Notes under the pieces: model-generated
Database searches by the model: none
The model's input: the letters and a program-made list of their open reading frames with translations, nothing else
Told to the model about the DNA's origin: nothing
Assembly (NCBI GenBank): GCA_027317865.1
Contig: DAHVQG010000001.1
Location: 256,001-320,000 of the forward strand
DNA: 64,000 nucleotides
Source: Bdellovibrionales bacterium
GTDB taxonomy: Bacteria > Bdellovibrionota > Bdellovibrionia > Bdellovibrionales > UBA1609
Reading direction: 5' to 3'
Position numbers and translations under genes: made by a program
In this document: piece after piece, positions 47,874 to 56,000 of the stretch
How the letters are laid out: every line of letters starts with the position of its first letter
Position numbering within the stretch: position 1 is the first letter of the stretch

Positions 47874-48659
47874 TCAGCCGAGTTCAATTGGGGCATTGTT
47901 TGTCGCGCACCATTCGCTCCACGAGCCAGGGTATAGTTCAGACGGCATTTCTAATTCGGCTGCTATTAGAAGTAAAACGGCTGCGGTCACGCCAGATCCA
48001 CAGTAGAAGACCGGATGTTCAAAATTCAGTAGAGTTCGTAACTCGTTTAAAGGCAGAAATTTTCCGTCATTCGACATTGCACGCTTATAGTACAAGTTCA
48101 CAGCGCCAGGGATGTGGCCCGCCTTCGGATCGATGGGCTCAACTTCACCGCGATATCGTTCGGGTGCCCTTGCGTCCACCAATTGACGCCCAAGAATCTG
48201 TTCTTTAGAAACAAAATTTATTAAAGGCGGGCGTTTGGTGAAGTTCTTTGCCTGAGGTTTTGTCGTTTCACCGCTTTCGATTGCCTTACCCGCTCGCCGC
48301 CAGGCCGACAAACCACCATTCAAAACATAAACTTTTTCGTGCCCCATCCAACGCAACAACATCCATAAACGAGCCGCGCCGGAATGGTCGGTATCATCGT
48401 AAGCAACTACCGGGGTGTCTTGATCAATGCCCAAGCGACAAAATAATCTGATAAGATCGGGCTCTGAGGGTAGCGGATGCCTTCCGTTTTGACCCGTTTT
48501 ACGGCCAGAAAGATCAGACTCCAAGTCAACAAAAGTCGCTCCCGGGATGTGCGCCTCTTTGTATAGATTCACTGCTAATTTTGGGTCGCTTAATCGAAAA
48601 CGAGCATCAATTAACCGCGCGTTGGGCGGAATATCTTCTATTTCAATTATATTTGTCAT
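47874..48659 (-). CDS. sseA: Tandem rhodanese sulfurtransferase (SseA/MST-like)
   Basis: HIPGA, GRHPLP, AARLW, YCGSGVTA, LYPGSWSEW. Confidence 0.92.
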   Translation of the reverse strand: MTNIIEIEDIPPNARLIDARFRLSDPKLAVNLYKEAHIPGATFVDLESDLSGRKTGQNGRHPLPSEPDLIRLFCRLGIDQDTPVVAYDDTDHSGAARLWMLLRWMGHEKVYVLNGGLSAWRRAGKAIESGETTKPQAKNFTKRPPLINFVSKEQILGRQLVDARAPERYRGEVEPIDPKAGHIPGAVNLYYKRAMSNDGKFLPLNELRTLLNFEHPVFYCGSGVTAAVLLLIAAELEMPSELYPGSWSEWCATNNAPIELG

Positions 48660-48697
48660 GTCGACAGTGTAGCTTCTTTAGGCTGGCAACGGTAGTT

Positions 48698-49681
48698 TTA
48701 TGCCGCCTCAACCAATTTATGGCTGTAATGCGGGCGCACACGATCACGGAGAATTTCGTAAAGCTCCTCGCGCGATTGACCATTTGGATGAAGCCAACGA
48801 TCGATATTGTTTGGCTTTAAAAAAACGGGGCAACGTTCGTGGCCGGTTTCGGCAATTTCTTTTGGTGGATCATCCGTGATGATCGCGCAAGAATATAAAT
48901 CAGGTTTGCCTTTTTGCTTATTCACATCCCAGATCGTCGGGATGATCATGTAATCGGTATTGTCAGGTTCAAAAGAAAGAATCACACTTTTTCGCTCACG
49001 AAGTTCAGGGGCTAGCGAAAACTTCTCTAAATACTTTTCGGTAGGGACATGTTCATAAAATTTAGATACGATGACGATGCCGTGCTGCGTGCCGAAGACG
49101 GGCCGCCAAAATGGGTTCTCGAGATTATCGAGACGGGCATTGTAGCAACCGCTAAATTTGCGATCGAAACTTTCGGCTTTGCCGCGCGGGCGCATGTGGT
49201 ACCGAAATGGGGCCACAATTTTTTCGCCGGTTTCATCAACTGTAATCATTGAAAGATAACTCAATGGGAAAACGCTTTTTTCATCTTCAGAAATGTAGTC
49301 GGACGTATTGAATTTTTTAAGTTTAAATTTGATTTGGTCAATTTTATTTGTGGCAATTCGTTTTTCTTCAAGCGCTTTCTTCGTCGATTTTGCGCTCAAG
49401 CTGCGTTCGGCCAGCGTGAGTCGCGCTTGTTGTTTGAAAAGCTCTTCTTCAAGGAGGGTAATCTGATCTTTTCGCCATTTCAAAATCATCTCGGCGATAT
49501 GCTTTTCTTGCGCTGATTTGGGGGCAACGAGAAACGGGTTCTCCATCGCTTTGTTGATCGTAAGTTTTTCGCCCTTTGCCCGCCGGGTAAAAATGTCCTC
49601 GTACATGTCGAGTTGCACACGAACGCCGAATTTCATTCCGATTTCTTTTGCGTCTTGTTGGACCATCGCCGAGTAGCACAT
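48698..49681 (-). CDS. SOS response-associated peptidase (SRAP/HMCES-like)
   Basis: Start MCYSAM (Cys2) at 49681; YNAR.DNL, FYE, AIITD.PP, GHERCP. Confidence 0.88.
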   Translation of the reverse strand: MCYSAMVQQDAKEIGMKFGVRVQLDMYEDIFTRRAKGEKLTINKAMENPFLVAPKSAQEKHIAEMILKWRKDQITLLEEELFKQQARLTLAERSLSAKSTKKALEEKRIATNKIDQIKFKLKKFNTSDYISEDEKSVFPLSYLSMITVDETGEKIVAPFRYHMRPRGKAESFDRKFSGCYNARLDNLENPFWRPVFGTQHGIVIVSKFYEHVPTEKYLEKFSLAPELRERKSVILSFEPDNTDYMIIPTIWDVNKQKGKPDLYSCAIITDDPPKEIAETGHERCPVFLKPNNIDRWLHPNGQSREELYEILRDRVRPHYSHKLVEAA

Positions 49682-49933
49682 GAACGGCATTATAGCGCTC
49701 GACGAAGAAATGCACAAATCTTCGAGCGGGAGGTTTTAAAAGCCATTAGCGTTGTCACACTCCTCCATCATTGTGGCTAGATGGTCTGTATCCATATCTA
49801 AACTCAGTTGAAATTTCACCTTGATACGCGCGGCAATTTTTAACTCGAATCGACCGGCTCGGTGTCTATTTTTTATTCACTTGGGGGATTTGGACCAAAG
49901 TGTTGGCCCCCTAAGGCTGAATAATCGGGGGAA

Positions 49934-51754
49934 ATGAAAATGAGGCTAATTCAAAAACTCGCGCTGATTGTGATTGCAACGGCCGTGTCAATTTCAGCTC
50001 AATCCATGACAATGAAAGTGCTGGGGGAGCATGTACCTTACTCCGCCATGGCGAGTGCAGTGCGCGTGGGGCAACTCGCCGCCAACACGCCGATGAATCT
50101 CACTGTGGTTTTGAATTTGCGAAATACGCAAGCGCTGCAAACTCTGGTTAGCCGCCTATATAACCCGAATGACCCAATGTACGAGCATTATTTGACTCCC
50201 CAAGAGTTTCGCGCCGAATTTGGTCCGACCCGTCAGGATTTTGCGCAAGTTGAACAATATCTGAATTCACACAATTTGCGAATCATTCGCGAGACGACAA
50301 ACACAGTTCAATTTCAAGGCACATCGGCTGATGTTGAAAGCGCATTCGGCGTGCAGATGCAGAATTATTTGCAACCAAATGGCACGTTGGCCTACGCGCC
50401 CAGCGGTAACCCGCAGGTGGCAAGTCAAATTGCACCTGAAATTGCTGGCGTATTAGGGCTTAACACCTTCTCGCATTTTGTCGCTCACTATATCAAACGT
50501 CAAAATACCGAGCTGTCGCAATTTCAACCATTTGGCAGCGGACCTAACGGCGGTCTCTCACCGTCAGATATACAAACGGCTTACTCATTGGCAAATACGG
50601 GCGCAACCGGTGCGGGTCAAACGCTCGCGTTGATGGAGCTTGACGGTTACAATCCATCAGACATTTCAACTTACGCACAGACCTTTAATATTGGCTCGAC
50701 GCCGGCATTGCAGAATATTTTGGTCGATGGTTATAACGGTTCAGCCGGGTCTGGTGCTGACGAAGTGACTCTGGATATTGAACTTATGATTGCCGTCGCG
50801 CACAGCGCCTCTAAAATTTTGGTTTACGAAGGGCCCAATACCGAAACGGGGCCCATCGACGTTTACAGTAAAATTGCGGATGACGACATCGCAAAAGAAA
50901 TCAGTACTTCATGGGGCAGCCCTGAATCGCAAAATACTCAGGCGTTTTTGAACTCCGAAAATACAATATTTGAGCAAATGGCCGCGCAAGGGCAAACCAT
51001 TTATGCCGCTTCAGGCGACTCGGGAGCGTACGACAACGGTTCAACTTTGGGCGTGGACGATCCCGCATCGCAACCCTACGTGGTTGCGGCCGGCGGCACG
51101 ACACTCAATACGGCGACAAACGGATCTTATATCAGTGAAAGCAGTTGGGGAATTCCAGCCAGCCCACAAAACCAATTACAAGGAGGCGGCGGCGGAATCA
51201 GTAGTGTATGGTCGATACCGAGTTGGCAGACTGGTGTCGCGAATAGCTTGAACAAGGGTTCAACAACAATGCGAATGGTTCCGGATGTTTCAGTCGAAGC
51301 CAACCCGCAAACTGGATACGCAATCTACGTCGGCGGAAGTTGGGGCGTCTTCGGTGGGACAAGTTGTGCTGCGCCTATTTGGGCGGGATTTACGGCGCTG
51401 GTTAACCAAGCTCGTGCGAGCAAGGGTTTGAGTCCTCTCGGCTTTGCCGACCCTGCACTCTATAAATTGGGCGAGAGCTCAGCATACACAACTCTGTTTC
51501 ATGACATCGCCGACGATTCGACCAATTTATTTTACCCTGCCGTGAGCGGATATGATTTGTCGACGGGTTGGGGTTCAATGGTGGGGCCAAATTTATTATC
51601 GGCTCTCGTTGGTTCATCGGTAACGCCAGCACCCACACCGACACCCACACCGACTCCCACGCCGACACCCACACCGACACCGACACCAACGCCAGCGCCG
51701 AGTGTGCCGCCGACACCAACAAATTTAACGGTCGTTTCGGTTACGCCGAACTAA
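49934..51754 (+). CDS. S53 family (sedolisin/kumamolisin) serine protease with pro-domain and PT linker
   Basis: Pro-domain YLTPQEFRAEFGP; EVTLDIE (E,D), SGDSG, GGTSCAAP (Ser), GYDLSTGWGS; (PT)n linker. Confidence 0.93.
   Translation: MKMRLIQKLALIVIATAVSISAQSMTMKVLGEHVPYSAMASAVRVGQLAANTPMNLTVVLNLRNTQALQTLVSRLYNPNDPMYEHYLTPQEFRAEFGPTRQDFAQVEQYLNSHNLRIIRETTNTVQFQGTSADVESAFGVQMQNYLQPNGTLAYAPSGNPQVASQIAPEIAGVLGLNTFSHFVAHYIKRQNTELSQFQPFGSGPNGGLSPSDIQTAYSLANTGATGAGQTLALMELDGYNPSDISTYAQTFNIGSTPALQNILVDGYNGSAGSGADEVTLDIELMIAVAHSASKILVYEGPNTETGPIDVYSKIADDDIAKEISTSWGSPESQNTQAFLNSENTIFEQMAAQGQTIYAASGDSGAYDNGSTLGVDDPASQPYVVAAGGTTLNTATNGSYISESSWGIPASPQNQLQGGGGGISSVWSIPSWQTGVANSLNKGSTTMRMVPDVSVEANPQTGYAIYVGGSWGVFGGTSCAAPIWAGFTALVNQARASKGLSPLGFADPALYKLGESSAYTTLFHDIADDSTNLFYPAVSGYDLSTGWGSMVGPNLLSALVGSSVTPAPTPTPTPTPTPTPTPTPTPTPAPSVPPTPTNLTVVSVTPN
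51623..51700 (+). repeat. Pro-Thr coding tandem repeat (ACNCCN)n
   Basis: TPAPTPTPTPTPTPTPTPTPTPTPAP. Confidence 0.85.
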
Positions 51755-51766
51755 AGGAGTAAAGAC

Positions 51767-52087
51767 GTGAAAAAAATACTTCTGATCGCCTTTTTCGGAC
51801 TTCTAATAGTGGGTTGTAATTCGCACATACCGTCACAGAGTTCAATGCGTGCGGGCGCAACGATGAACGTCAACTTGGCTTGGCAATCGGTGCCCGGCGC
51901 TCAACTCGGTTTTGACATTGAAGAGTCTGTCGACGGCAAAAACTTTATGCAAATTTTGACCGTGCCCGATGGAGTCAACTTTGCTAGTATTCCGGTTACA
52001 TCGGGCTCGACCTATTACTTTCGCATGCGCAGCTTTAACTCGGTTGGTACTTCAAATTACACTCCGGTAGTTACCGTTAGGCTGTAG
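51767..52087 (+). CDS. Lipoprotein with fibronectin type III domain apparently lacking strand A
   Basis: RBS AGGAG, GTG start, lipobox IVGC; VNLAW...GFDIEES.DG..F...TYYFRMRSFNSVGTS.Y. Confidence 0.85.
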   Translation: MKKILLIAFFGLLIVGCNSHIPSQSSMRAGATMNVNLAWQSVPGAQLGFDIEESVDGKNFMQILTVPDGVNFASIPVTSGSTYYFRMRSFNSVGTSNYTPVVTVRL

Positions 52088-52124
52088 TGCTTGTTTGAAA
52101 TTGTGGTCCAGCGGCAAACCATGA

Positions 52125-52715
52125 TTACTGTGAGTTGCTAAGAAACGGGATGAGCATCGGAACGCGCTGTTTGTAGTCCTCATAAACGTGGGCACCCAAT
52201 TCGCTTGCCAGCCATTGTTCTTCAAGACGCGCTTTGAGCCAAAAGCTAAAGATGATTAATATTCCGCCGATTACCGCGTTAATCGTCCCGTACTGTATTA
52301 CAGTCGCCACAATCGCGAAGCTCACACCCGTGTAAATGGGATGTCGGACAATTTGGTACGGGCCCGTGTCAATTATATGGTGATTTTCTTTGTGTGTAAT
52401 TGAACCGGACCACAATCGTCCAATGTGTATACGTGCCCACCAGGCAAACGCGAATCCGACGGCAACAAGCCCTAAGCAAAGCCACGCAATCGCATTGTTG
52501 ACACTCCATAAATGCCACGAAGCTTTCGTGCTTTGAGCGGGTAAAACAAAGAGTAAAAACAGACCAAAAAACGTAACAGCCCGATATTTAAGTTCAGCGC
52601 GCAAGTTTAGACGCCTTACGGTTTTGTTGGTCCAAAAGGAAGCGGCAATCCACGAAGCAAACCAGGCGATCCACAATAAACCGGTCAAAAAAATAGTTTT
52701 CATGCGCTTATACAA
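52125..52715 (-). CDS. Isoprenylcysteine carboxylmethyltransferase family membrane protein
   Basis: HIGRLWS, IIDTGPYQIVRHPIYTG, EEQWL, Y.DYKQRVP. Confidence 0.9.
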   Translation of the reverse strand: MYKRMKTIFLTGLLWIAWFASWIAASFWTNKTVRRLNLRAELKYRAVTFFGLFLLFVLPAQSTKASWHLWSVNNAIAWLCLGLVAVGFAFAWWARIHIGRLWSGSITHKENHHIIDTGPYQIVRHPIYTGVSFAIVATVIQYGTINAVIGGILIIFSFWLKARLEEQWLASELGAHVYEDYKQRVPMLIPFLSNSQ

Positions 52716-52818
52716 TACTTCTTTTTACACTTGAGCGGAAGGGGCTGTGCAAGTTTTAGCATCGTCAAAATCTTGATGGTTACGTGCGGATCTGTTAAAA
52801 ATCGCGCAGGGAGGGCTC

Positions 52819-53211
52819 ATGCGGTTGCTCGGAAACCTGATTTGGTTTATTTTTGGCGGCTTTTTCATGGGGCTTGCGTGGTGGTTAGCCGGATTGTTGG
52901 CTGCTCTTACGATTATTGGCATTCCATTTGCTATTGCCGCGTTTCGTATCGGCACGTTTTCATTTTGGCCGTTTGGCCGCCAAATTGTGCCGCAACCGAA
53001 CAGAGGTGAAGTCCATGAGCTACTCGATTTTCTAGCCAATATTTTGTGGATCATCTTCGGCGGTTTGTGGCTGGCCATCGGGCATCTTGTTTGGGCACTG
53101 ATTTTCACCATCACGATAATTGGAGTACCGTTTGCCGTTCAGCATTTGAAATTAGCCCGTCTTTCTTTCACGCCGTACGGCAAACGGATCGTGGCAGCGG
53201 CACAGGTGTAA
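52819..53211 (+). CDS. yccF: YccF-domain inner membrane protein
   Basis: Duplicated NLIWFIFGG...TIIGIPF...WPFG. Confidence 0.92.
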   Translation: MRLLGNLIWFIFGGFFMGLAWWLAGLLAALTIIGIPFAIAAFRIGTFSFWPFGRQIVPQPNRGEVHELLDFLANILWIIFGGLWLAIGHLVWALIFTITIIGVPFAVQHLKLARLSFTPYGKRIVAAAQV

Positions 53212-53384
53212 TGACATTTTCGCTCGCCCGGTTCAACTGTCAGAATTTTTGACAATCAAGAACATTGTTCATGCGAATCAATTGGGCGTGTTTGATGCTG
53301 CAAGATGTGGCTGTCAAAAATAATAACATCTTTTTACTGAATTTCGTTCATGGCATATTGACGTGTGTGAAAGCTAGGGTTCGG

Positions 53385-54437
53385 ATGATTTCGCGAATCA
53401 TGTTTATTTCTTTTCTTATATTATCATCGGTAAGTTACGCGAGTAATTTCGACAGTGGTGTGCCGTTAAAAAACCGGTACAGTAGTTATTTCGACCAATT
53501 CGACGAATTGGATCCGAAGCCTTCGCAATTTCTGGCGCCAAATGAAACGCAGCCTAAAGATTTGCTGCCGATTTTAGTCAATGCGCAAAAGGGCGTGTAT
53601 GTCAGTGTGGGGACAGAACGCGGTTTTATGGCCGCGGGTCTATCAGGCGCGATCACAGATCTTGTGCTTGTTGATCTTGATCCAAGCATCGCGTTCTACA
53701 ATACGATAAACATCGAATTGCTAAAGGCGGCTAAAAATAGGGAGCAATACGTTTACTTGCGTACGAAGGCTACCGAGAGCGACTGGCAAACCGCGCTGAA
53801 CGGTCTAGTGGCACATGATCAGATCGCGAAACAGTGGGAGTGGTGGCGCGACGCCGTTTTGCCAGAAGCTCGAATGGATGTTTTTCATATTGACCCGACA
53901 AAATCGAAATATCCAAATCCGTCGTTTGAAGATGCGAATTACTTGTACCTCGAGAAAAACTTCAAGCGGGTGAAACGACTGGCGGACCACGATCGCATTC
54001 AAGTGCTAGAGGCCGATATAAAAAACAGTAAAGTCTTGAATTTGTTTGAGCGGTTTAAAAAATCCGGACAACAAATTTCAGTTATCGATATCAGTAATTT
54101 GTATGGCCCGGGTCACGCCGGGGCAAAATATACCGCTGCATTTTTAGAAAGCATAAGGTCTGTTGTTGATGAAAAAACTATTTTGGTTTACACAATCGGG
54201 CGCGGAGATTCTTCGGGTGAATGGTTCTACGTTGGGTTTCGTTTCGGCAAAATTTGGCATGAGGGTGTTTATAAATTTGTCGATGAGAACCTAAAACAGC
54301 GCCCACCATATTTGAATCGCTACAATCACTCTACGTTTTTCGAAGGCGAACCTGCCTATGTGAATGTAAAACCCCAGAATCAATCCTGTGGCCGCATTTT
54401 GCGTTCAACTGGACCAAGGTATAGTCCCACTATTTGA
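53385..54437 (+). CDS. Exported hypothetical protein with SAM-methyltransferase-like Rossmann motifs
   Basis: Start probably ATG 53385 (signal peptide ending SYA); GVYVSVGTERGF, LVLVDLDP, VIDISN; near-terminal SCGRIL. Confidence 0.6.
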   Translation: MISRIMFISFLILSSVSYASNFDSGVPLKNRYSSYFDQFDELDPKPSQFLAPNETQPKDLLPILVNAQKGVYVSVGTERGFMAAGLSGAITDLVLVDLDPSIAFYNTINIELLKAAKNREQYVYLRTKATESDWQTALNGLVAHDQIAKQWEWWRDAVLPEARMDVFHIDPTKSKYPNPSFEDANYLYLEKNFKRVKRLADHDRIQVLEADIKNSKVLNLFERFKKSGQQISVIDISNLYGPGHAGAKYTAAFLESIRSVVDEKTILVYTIGRGDSSGEWFYVGFRFGKIWHEGVYKFVDENLKQRPPYLNRYNHSTFFEGEPAYVNVKPQNQSCGRILRSTGPRYSPTI

Positions 54438-54533
54438 CAACCGATTGCCCTACTTGTTTCAATTACCTATGACTTTTGTCGAGTAGCCGCGAGCAGTACG
54501 CGAAATGGCTGCATCGACTTCAAGGAGGGGACA

Positions 54534-56000
54534 ATGGGTAAGCGTGGACTTTTATTTTTAGCGATCAGTATCGTTGCGATGACCGCTACGGCGGCAGTGG
54601 TTGGATTTGAATTGACCACTGAGATCAGTGCCGATCCTTATACGCAGCAACCGATAAAAACTGAAGTTGAGCCCGATACGTATTCGTTCGGTTCAACAAT
54701 TGTCGGCGCGTTTCAAGTCGGCCGTTTTGCCGACGGCGGAGCGCTCGACATTGGTTGGGCGACGTCAAACGATAACGGCAAAACGTGGCACCATGGTTTT
54801 CTGCCCGGGATAACCAAATATCAAAATAATGGCCCGTATGATCGCGTGAGCGATGCGTCGGTAGCCTATGATGCCAAACATAAGGTTTGGATGGTTTCTT
54901 CTCTTGCGATTTATGATTTAAACGGCAACATTACGAGCCCGGCGATTATCGTCAGCCGCTCCACCGACGGCGGTCTCACGTGGCAAAATCCGGTGACCAT
55001 TCATGGCGAAGCTAAAACTGCGGGCCTCGATAAAAATTGGACCACTTGCGATGACTGGAAAACATCGCCCTATTATGGTCATTGCTACACCGAATGGGAT
55101 GCTCCCGAAAATTTCAACGAAATTTTTATGAGTACATCTACCGATGGCGGTCTCACGTGGAGTGCGCCGCAAACAACCGGCGATCAGGCGAGCGGTCTTG
55201 GAGGGCAACCGGTCGTTCAACCTAACGGCACAGTAATAGTTCCGATTGGCGACGCCGACGTGGGTAATCTCCTGTCGTTCGTGTCTCGTGATGGTGGTCA
55301 AACGTGGAGTGCTACGACAACCGTCACCGCACTGACTGTTCACACCGTGGGCAATAATCTTCGTACAGCACCCCTGCCTAGCGCGGCAGTGGATAATACG
55401 GGCAAAGTATATGTTGTGTGGCAAGATTGTCGGTTTGAATCGAATTGTTCAGCCAATGACATTGTCATGTCGACGACAACTGATGGTATAAATTGGTCGC
55501 CTGTGGTACGTATTCCAACTGATTCTGTTGGGAGCAATGTCGATCATTTTCTTCCCGCTATTGCCATTGATCGCAATACCGGGGGTGCAACGGCGCACTT
55601 AAGTTTGACCTATTACTATTATCCAAACGCAAATTGCTCCGGTACAAGCTGTGAGTTGCGTGTGGCGACTGATCAATCGACCGACGGAGGCGCCAGTTGG
55701 ACCCAGCCCATGGAGATCGGCTCTAAACCTGTCAATTGGAATACTGTCCCCGAAACCGATATGGGTCCGATGGTTGGCGATTATATATCAGCGTCATTTG
55801 TTGACGGTGTTTCAATCCCGATATTTGCAATGAGTTCGTCACTCGATGGCTTAACTATGAATTCAATTTCAGCAAATTTGAATTCGGTTCGCGAACTGGA
55901 ACTTTCAAGCTTCGCTCTCCCGCGTGAAAATGTGAGCTACGGGCCGATTTTAAGTGTGCCATCAGGACACGTTGAACCGCATTGGACGCGTTTATTTTAA
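54534..56000 (+). CDS. Secreted sialidase-family (BNR/Asp-box) beta-propeller protein
   Basis: Repeated S.D.G.TW Asp boxes; DKNW; GDYI. Confidence 0.85.
   Translation: MGKRGLLFLAISIVAMTATAAVVGFELTTEISADPYTQQPIKTEVEPDTYSFGSTIVGAFQVGRFADGGALDIGWATSNDNGKTWHHGFLPGITKYQNNGPYDRVSDASVAYDAKHKVWMVSSLAIYDLNGNITSPAIIVSRSTDGGLTWQNPVTIHGEAKTAGLDKNWTTCDDWKTSPYYGHCYTEWDAPENFNEIFMSTSTDGGLTWSAPQTTGDQASGLGGQPVVQPNGTVIVPIGDADVGNLLSFVSRDGGQTWSATTTVTALTVHTVGNNLRTAPLPSAAVDNTGKVYVVWQDCRFESNCSANDIVMSTTTDGINWSPVVRIPTDSVGSNVDHFLPAIAIDRNTGGATAHLSLTYYYYPNANCSGTSCELRVATDQSTDGGASWTQPMEIGSKPVNWNTVPETDMGPMVGDYISASFVDGVSIPIFAMSSSLDGLTMNSISANLNSVRELELSSFALPRENVSYGPILSVPSGHVEPHWTRLF

Follow-up and report, generated by a model that had tools for sequence, protein, structure and literature searches.

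In the man-made systems SpyTag/SpyCatcher and split GFP with its strand 11, a single strand on one partner completes the sandwich or barrel of the other. In the cohesin-dockerin system, a short C-terminal module on secreted cellulosomal enzymes plugs into a cell-bound receptor module. In chaperone-usher pili, an immunoglobulin (Ig)-like fold without one edge strand is filled in trans by the terminal extension of another polypeptide (general knowledge and excerpts of PMC5954841). In the type V pili of Bacteroidota (FimA/Mfa1), the subunits are lipoproteins, the groove is filled by the C-terminal β-strand of another subunit and a protease is involved (excerpts of PMC5954841). Here, we describe two adjacent genes, one for an S53 protease and one for a small lipoprotein, between which one domain of the fibronectin type III (FN3) kind appears to be divided, the protease ending in a tail that resembles strand A and the lipoprotein holding strands B to G. 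The pair lies in a stretch of 64,000 nucleotides from a Bdellovibrionales bacterium (assembly GCA_027317865.1, contig DAHVQG010000001.1, positions 256,001 to 320,000 of the forward strand), which is referred to below as the window and to which the following coordinates apply.

49934..51754, plus strand: gene of the S53 pre-pro protease (kumamolisin-like serine-carboxyl), 606 amino acids (aa), from the open reading frame (ORF), Pfam, a Protein Data Bank (PDB) match and an AlphaFold2 (AF2) model
49934..50005, plus strand: the protease's putative Sec signal peptide, ~24 residues with an approximate edge; basic start, hydrophobic run and ...SISAQS by reading, AF2 confidence (pLDDT) 45-51 over residues 1-20
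51620..51706, plus strand: Pro-Thr-rich linker of variable length, residues ~563-591, from the translation; AF2 pLDDT <50
51707..51751, plus strand: C-terminal tail PPTPTNLTVVSVTPN, 15 residues, the FN3 strand-A-like 'tag'; positions 4-17 of a hidden Markov model (HMM) of complete FN3 domains, 5.4 bits
51752..51766, plus strand: junction with TAA (51752-51754), ribosome-binding site (RBS) AGGAG (51755-51759) and a 7-nt spacer; the same in contigs X2 and X4
51767..51817, plus strand: lipoprotein signal peptide with lipobox L-I-V-G-C (residues 13-17), Cys17 at 51815-51817, from the ORF translation
51818..51859, plus strand: disordered tether of the mature lipoprotein, NSHIPSQSSMRAGA, coil in AF2; length and sequence vary among orthologs
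51860..52087, plus strand: the 'catcher', an FN3 domain of strands B to G alone, and the stop codon, from AF2, Foldseek and HMM

This anatomy is established from the sequence, the signal peptide of the protease having been read from the translation with no signal-peptide predictor. The protease ORF ends in ...PTPAPSVPPTPTNLTVVSVTPN before its TAA, and 12 bases further on a GTG at 51767 opens the lipoprotein ORF (51767..52087, 106 aa), the product of which begins with MKKILLIAFFGLLIVGC. A short Ser-rich stretch follows the lipobox and leads into NVNLAWQS...GFDIEES.DG...YYFRMRSFNS.G.S.Y. Because the gene 3′ of the lipoprotein gene is convergent (minus strand, ICMT-family methyltransferase), the unit consists of two genes. 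The AGGAG, the GTG start and the lipobox of the second gene are thus all present where the original prediction had read them.

We lean, with limited assurance, towards the reading that an ancestral second FN3 domain was split at the A/B turn and that the lipoprotein is now bound in trans by the tail, so that the protease is tethered to a membrane. The docking, the export routes and the membrane or leaflet involved are what we infer. Both proteins would be exported and the lipoprotein lipidated at Cys17; the protease would carry strand A as a C-terminal tag of 12-15 residues on the flexible Pro-Thr linker, and the next gene would be translationally coupled to the protease gene. The six-stranded lipoprotein domain would leave an edge open next to strand B on folding, the tail of the protease would enter this edge as the missing strand A (β-strand complementation in trans), and the protease would in this way be held non-covalently at the lipoprotein-bearing membrane. 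According to excerpts of PMC4330816, FN3 domains fold by way of a core formed by strands B, C, E and F, and strands A and G pack last; a stable B-to-G module with late addition of strand A is therefore plausible. At the level of titles and abstract openings, no description was found in the literature of a split FN3 domain shared between a protease and a lipoprotein.

The logic of such a pair is like that of donor-strand complementation and of engineered tag/catcher systems, and its use is like that of cohesin-dockerin, but it is a member of none of those families. In chaperone-usher pili, it is the C-terminal G strand of the pilin that is missing, the donor is a chaperone or the N-terminal extension of the next pilin, and the product is a polymer, whereas in the present pair an enzyme's C-terminus would donate the missing strand, the N-terminal A of FN3, to give a 1:1 tether. 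Near the pair, BLAST of the flanking frames at the 12 loci that carry it found neither an usher nor a chaperone gene. In type V pili, the protease Rgp removes an N-terminal strand to open the groove and the subunits polymerise, whereas here the protease itself would donate the strand and the groove would be open as encoded; a relation in sequence to FimA/Mfa1 was not seen, no search having been aimed at one. SpyCatcher differs in its isopeptide lock; the present split is a natural one between two adjacent genes, with nothing suggesting a covalent lock. Dockerin differs in being a folded calcium-binding module on the face of an intact cohesin, not a domain-completing strand. S53 enzymes with a fused C-terminal FN3 belong to the same protease family and carry the same kind of appended domain, but their FN3 is complete and covalent, whereas here a cut separates strand A from the rest of the last FN3, which is predicted to be lipid-anchored. 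A swap of N-terminal strands between molecules is also indicated by the title of PDB entry 4m6a, the FN3 scaffold Tencon.

If the tail docks, the pair would be a naturally evolved tag-and-catcher system made from an FN3 domain cut between two genes, and would give Gram-negative bacteria a new way to retain a secreted enzyme at the cell. It would also illustrate clearly how selection can preserve a domain fission, and would supply protein engineering with a small non-covalent peptide tag of 12-15 residues and an 8-kDa partner. Docking would explain the orphan C-terminal 'P..P.NL.V' in at least two enzyme families, a motif ignored by annotation pipelines, and would flag small neighbouring 'hypothetical' FN3 lipoproteins as receptors of tailed enzymes.

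Modelled by AF2 from an alignment of 11 sequences, the mature lipoprotein had a pLDDT of 87.3 and six strands (B to G), which span mature residues 15-21, 31-37, 44-50, 55-61, 65-73 and 85-88 (pLDDT 87-97 per block). The seven-stranded FN3 sandwich, A-B-C-C'-E-F-G, is therefore not complete in the model, and the rest of the fold fits FN3 structures: all listed Foldseek matches were of the FN3 type, for example 4m6a (TM 0.72, rmsd 1.9). Mature residues 1-14 were modelled as coil, the first ten averaging pLDDT 49. As in donor-strand systems, the acceptor fold is thus predicted to be encoded without one edge strand. The original prediction had the domain begin at strand B with no strand A, which the model bears out; a strand A formed by the N-terminus of the lipoprotein, named there as a finding that would speak against it, did not appear.

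Against Pfam fn3 (PF00041), the lipoprotein of the window scored E 0.08 (13.6 bits, under the cut-off of 25), and nine of 13 members of the lipoprotein family reached E <= 0.01 (best 7.7e-10). An HMM of 94 positions was built from 47 complete FN3 domains of the same sequence subtype, which sit inside large proteins retrieved with the lipoprotein as query; its consensus opens ..APAAPSNLTATAVSSSQINLSW. The lipoprotein of the window matched this HMM with 73.8 bits up to position 91, and in seven of 11 lipoproteins the match opened at positions 16-19. A search with the family profile, confined to proteins of 58-214 aa, retrieved 69 proteins, one of them a fragment of the window's own. Among these were 47 proteins of 99-130 aa with a signal peptide and Cys (41 by regular expression, six by eye), in which the match to the complete-FN3 HMM opened at position 11-22 (43 proteins) or 3-6 (four proteins); 19 of the 21 other matches, which lack a lipobox and are pieces of larger proteins, opened at positions 2-5. 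Lipidation is predicted from a signal peptide that ends in an invariant Cys, found in comparable context in all 13 family members; the +2 residue after the Cys is N, S, G or Q, and D in one locus.

The tail of the window's protease aligned with strand A of the HMM, at the positions and with the score listed above. As a control, the C-terminal 16-mers of open frames of at least 100 aa in the same genome (G000) were scored, and only two of 4,618 reached 5 bits on strand-A positions, that of the protease (5.4) and that of a small secreted FN3-like protein (5.7). Judged by this comparison of sequences, the resemblance of the tail to strand A is beyond chance. The tails in 10 of the 12 loci aligned with strand-A positions 3-17 (1.0-5.4 bits), so that in these the terminal extension of one partner is patterned like the strand missing from the other, as in donor-strand systems. 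Between G000 and G006, another species of the genus, nine of the 15 tail codons differ synonymously and two replace a residue, indicating that the constraint is on the peptide and not on the DNA; constraint on the tail at the protein level is thereby established.

The claim that an S53 protease carries this tail after a Pro-Thr linker also held. The protease has the layout that marks S53 enzymes, a subtilisin-like catalytic domain after a pro-kumamolisin activation domain: Pfam matched Pro-kuma_activ (PF09286) at residues 42-179 (E 2e-30) and Peptidase_S8 (PF00082; E 2.2e-8), and the match to pro-kumamolisin in the PDB (1t1e) had an E of 6.5e-66 over residues 29-562. E277 and D281 (EVTLDIEL), D362 (SGDSGAYD) and S477 (GGTSCAAP) were invariant in 50 aligned homologs and align with the kumamolisin motifs; we take them to be the Ser-Glu-Asp triad and the oxyanion Asp. 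AF2 modelling of the whole protease (50 sequences) gave a pLDDT of 88.7 and a fold that extends to about residue 560. Residues 563-606 were unstructured and undocked (pLDDT <50), so that the tail is not predicted to dock on its own protein and is free in the model. NCBIfam had no family matching the protease, the lipoprotein or the small secreted FN3-like protein of G000 just mentioned.

In 12 distinct loci, the lipoprotein gene was found to come next after a tail-bearing S53 gene, with protease identity down to ~45-50%, which establishes that the pair is conserved. Besides the window, these are L029 and L108; L033, L109 and L046, from species-representative genomes; and L186, L187, L188, L189, L221 and L260, from metagenomes (L212 and L046 are one contig and were counted once). 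Two other species of the genus have the pair, with the tails PPTPTNLTVVSITPA (G006) and PPPPTNLIVISVTTY (G005) and with lipoproteins 75% and 68% identical to that of the window, the region from the Cys to the first strand being the least conserved. The two genes overlap by four bases (TTGA) in two loci, are separated by 0-15 bases in nine, and by 1 or 40 bases, depending on the choice of start, in one; the junction is in frame in five of the 12, and a signal peptide with lipobox and an RBS lie between tail and domain in all of them. This spacing and the mixed frames fit translational coupling and not read-through. The tail, stop codon, RBS and start codon are also spanned by two contigs without any listed difference there, X2 from a second sample of the probable source study (one piece, 51508-52120) and X4 from another study (51672-52120). 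The X2 contig has a 6-base deletion at 51653 in the Pro-Thr repeat with the tail unchanged; likewise, in P0006, a 97%-identical protein of 590 aa as against 606, the Pro-Thr linker is shorter and the tail unchanged.

The lipoprotein HMM was run over the 9,356 open frames of 158 S53 loci. Small standalone matches occurred in 10 of the 158, each directly 3′ of a tail-bearing protease, and the remaining matches were FN3 domains inside large proteins; the other 148 S53 loci had no small lipoprotein gene matching this HMM, and nine of the 158 are uninformative, the protease frame being cut off by the end of the contig. The reverse scan, of species-representative genomes, showed that all five small lipoprotein genes follow a tail-bearing protease. 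An S53 paralog, 68% identical to the window's protease, lies ~16.5 kb past the window end (G000:C11:336546-338237, minus strand; L024). It ends in ...LFTALTSK right after the catalytic domain, without linker, tail or a lipoprotein or FN3 neighbour, and in the tree described below it is the sister of the window's protease (support 99). Its ortholog in G006 also ends after the catalytic domain and has no lipoprotein neighbour. No tail-less protease that keeps the lipoprotein, another finding that was to speak against the original prediction, was therefore seen in the 148 other S53 loci.

Similar tails were found elsewhere in G000, outside the window. At G000:C39:161415-165625 (L352:2416..6625), two adjacent paralogous Tat-signal proteins of 568 and 610 aa, 34% identical to each other and without a Pfam match, end in ...TPMAPTLLKVV and ...TPMPPTLLKVA. 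Nineteen bases past them lies a gene for a 151-aa protein with a signal peptide and a Ser/Gly linker; its fn3 match starts at profile position 12 of 84, suggesting that this protein too is without strand A. Among the 150 best representatives of this enzyme family, 53 end in a ...P.(A/P)P.L(S/T)V(S/T)-like motif, and another 64 stop at the conserved motif that precedes it. Searches of 40 relatives, and of 400 genomes of the phylum other than G000, did not turn up the module. The small secreted FN3-like protein that scored 5.7 bits is encoded at G000:C40:32479-32877 on the minus strand (L014:1405..1872); it has a Sec signal, matches the fn3 profile at 10-82 and ends in ...VIPSPPTNLTLTAQ. It and its G006 ortholog share the ending ...VIPSPPTN(L/V)TLTAQ (...PPTNVTLTAQ in G006), and no lipoprotein gene adjoins the G000 gene. 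Possible roles of this protein are that of a second catcher client and that of a unit which complements itself or polymerises. We suggest only tentatively, and rather doubt, that exported proteins dock in general by a natural system of strand-A tags and A-less FN3 catchers; if they do, split FN3 domains would serve bacteria as modular connectors of the plug-and-socket type that display or assemble extracytoplasmic enzymes.

FN3-like lipoproteins with a Ser/Gly linker and a domain opening near ...TW.APT.NTDGS were also seen at G000:C37:20991-21239 (minus strand), G000:C8:2972-3232 (minus strand) and G006 locus L351, with the lipoboxes VIALAGC, SLLVGC and SFLLGC, respectively. The genes upstream of the first two showed no tail.

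Several observations weigh against docking of the tail on the lipoprotein. The tail scores are small, as expected of 16-mers, and those of L221 (-0.6 bits) and L260 (-0.1 bits) are weak. The pair loci are related, and therefore do not represent 12 independent events; gene context is known for a minority of the 47 small lipoprotein clusters; and the AF2 model of the lipoprotein rests on an alignment of just 11 sequences. In four of 11 lipoproteins, that of the window included, the local HMM alignment extends through the linker to positions 6-13. For the window it reaches position 8 with gapless spacing, so that a degenerate strand A of the lipoprotein's own is compatible with its sequence. The L221-like and L260-like subfamilies have conserved linker motifs (K.EDPVVTTTG.VP.P and TPS...VNNRALLSW) that might form a strand of their own. 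These two branches may work differently, perhaps supplying part of strand A themselves. Scans of the genome contigs with L221-like and L260-like lipoproteins revealed only ordinary FN3 domains in large proteins and no small lipoprotein genes.

A different role of the tail, which we consider unlikely, would be that of a sorting or secretion signal, of a cis element in maturation or autoinhibition, or of a ligand of another partner; the lipoprotein would then be a separate accessory, for example a substrate binder or pilot. Tails of like shape in an unrelated exported enzyme family (the 53 of 150 representatives above) would fit a general signal, and the small secreted FN3-like protein has its tail without an adjacent lipoprotein. 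Against this, the tail matches in register exactly the part of FN3 that is missing from the neighbour, and in the one context known of the second enzyme family the next gene likewise encodes an FN3 protein, with a Pfam match from profile position 12 onwards. All-against-all BLAST of the flanking open frames detected no third gene common to the 12 loci, one extra cluster consisting of antisense frames inside the protease gene. The undocked tail in the AF2 model of the protease also argues, weakly, against such a different role.

It is also conceivable, though rather improbable, that the tail is a relic of fission: a protease with two FN3 domains broke, the lipoprotein acquired a separate role, and the tail was left over without a binding function. 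The pair clearly comes from a fused type of ancestor, many S53 relatives having C-terminal FN3 domains (PF00041 or the FN3-like PF16656 occurs at the C-terminus of many of the 120 best protease homologs), and the six-stranded domain, being modelled confidently alone, may not need a seventh strand. The history of the tail speaks otherwise. A FastTree tree of 118 catalytic cores was built with SH-like support, tails being defined by regular expression. The results showed that all tail-bearing rows except P0086 fall in one clade of 31 of the 118 rows (support 99). P0086 was rejected as tail-bearing, its locus L226 being a frameshifted ordinary FN3; the short 'tail' of L246 was also rejected, as an ordinary fused FN3 broken by an in-frame TAG, and such cases can mislead regular-expression counts. 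The usual tail-bearing architecture in the clade is a catalytic domain, a complete FN3 with its own strand A, and the tail, for example ...VSVTPTLMVPQAPGNLSVNIGGQ. Forms with the tail alone occur at no fewer than three separate places among these, namely the window with P0006, P0021 with P0026, and P0045, and by eye also P0013, suggesting that the complete FN3 was lost repeatedly while the tail stayed. A useless leftover of 12-15 residues should decay, but the tail is kept over the whole range of protease identity of the pair, has survived at least three separate losses of the adjacent FN3, changes mostly at synonymous codon positions, and is gone exactly where the lipoprotein is gone.

The same tree bears on the origin of the docking pair that we favour. 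Since the usual form in the clade has a complete FN3 followed by the tail, the split FN3 would be the ancestral second FN3, and in this genus the Pro-Thr linker appears to have replaced the first. The simplest history would be a two-FN3 ancestor in which a stop codon, a start codon and a lipoprotein signal peptide came to interrupt the second domain at the A/B turn; the uncut two-FN3 form was not seen among the 120 best homologs. The original interpretation of the locus therefore stands in part: two of the three findings that were to speak against it did not appear, but the tail is no peculiarity of this protease and is instead an old feature of an S53 clade.

That the linker of the lipoprotein itself gives strand A, making the domain complete alone, seems very improbable to us. 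The linker of the window, PSQSSMRAGATM, does align without gaps to the strand-A region of the HMM, and the conserved linker motifs of the L221-like and L260-like subfamilies would suit such a strand. However, the linkers are 16-27 aa long, variable in sequence and rich in Ser, Thr, Gly and Pro, and the corresponding residues of the window's protein are coil with low pLDDT in the model. When nine linkers were scored alone, they gave -2.1 to +1.2 bits, and only one fell on strand-A positions; that of the window scored -0.8 bits off these positions, and two more linkers gave no alignment.

That the layout is an artefact, whether of misassembly, of a pseudogene with an in-frame stop or of programmed read-through to a fused protein, is close to refuted: the two ORFs of the window do lie in one frame with a single TAA between them, and a broken FN3 occurs in other S53 genes from metagenomes (the L226 frameshift and the L246 TAG), but with only five of 12 junctions in frame a read-through or frameshift reading was rejected, two junctions overlap as TTGA, every locus has the signal peptide and RBS between tail and domain, and the junction is identical in contigs from other samples, all in keeping with the earlier view that the split, kept here in 12 loci, is not a frameshift artefact.

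A promoter and terminator scan of 49600-52300 gave nothing above the shuffled expectation, and no terminator was found between the two genes. The neighbours at 47874-49717 and 52125-56000 look unrelated to the pair; they are a rhodanese-like ORF (by eye), an SRAP-domain protein, the convergent membrane methyltransferase of the ICMT/PEMT family, a small membrane protein, a DUF7790 protein and a BNR-repeat protein. Sequencing runs containing at least half of the sampled words of 51300-52100 are labelled as mine drainage (one study), wastewater and sediment metagenomes, one run being unlabelled; no RNA run was listed for this part. An acidic habitat would suit an S53 enzyme.

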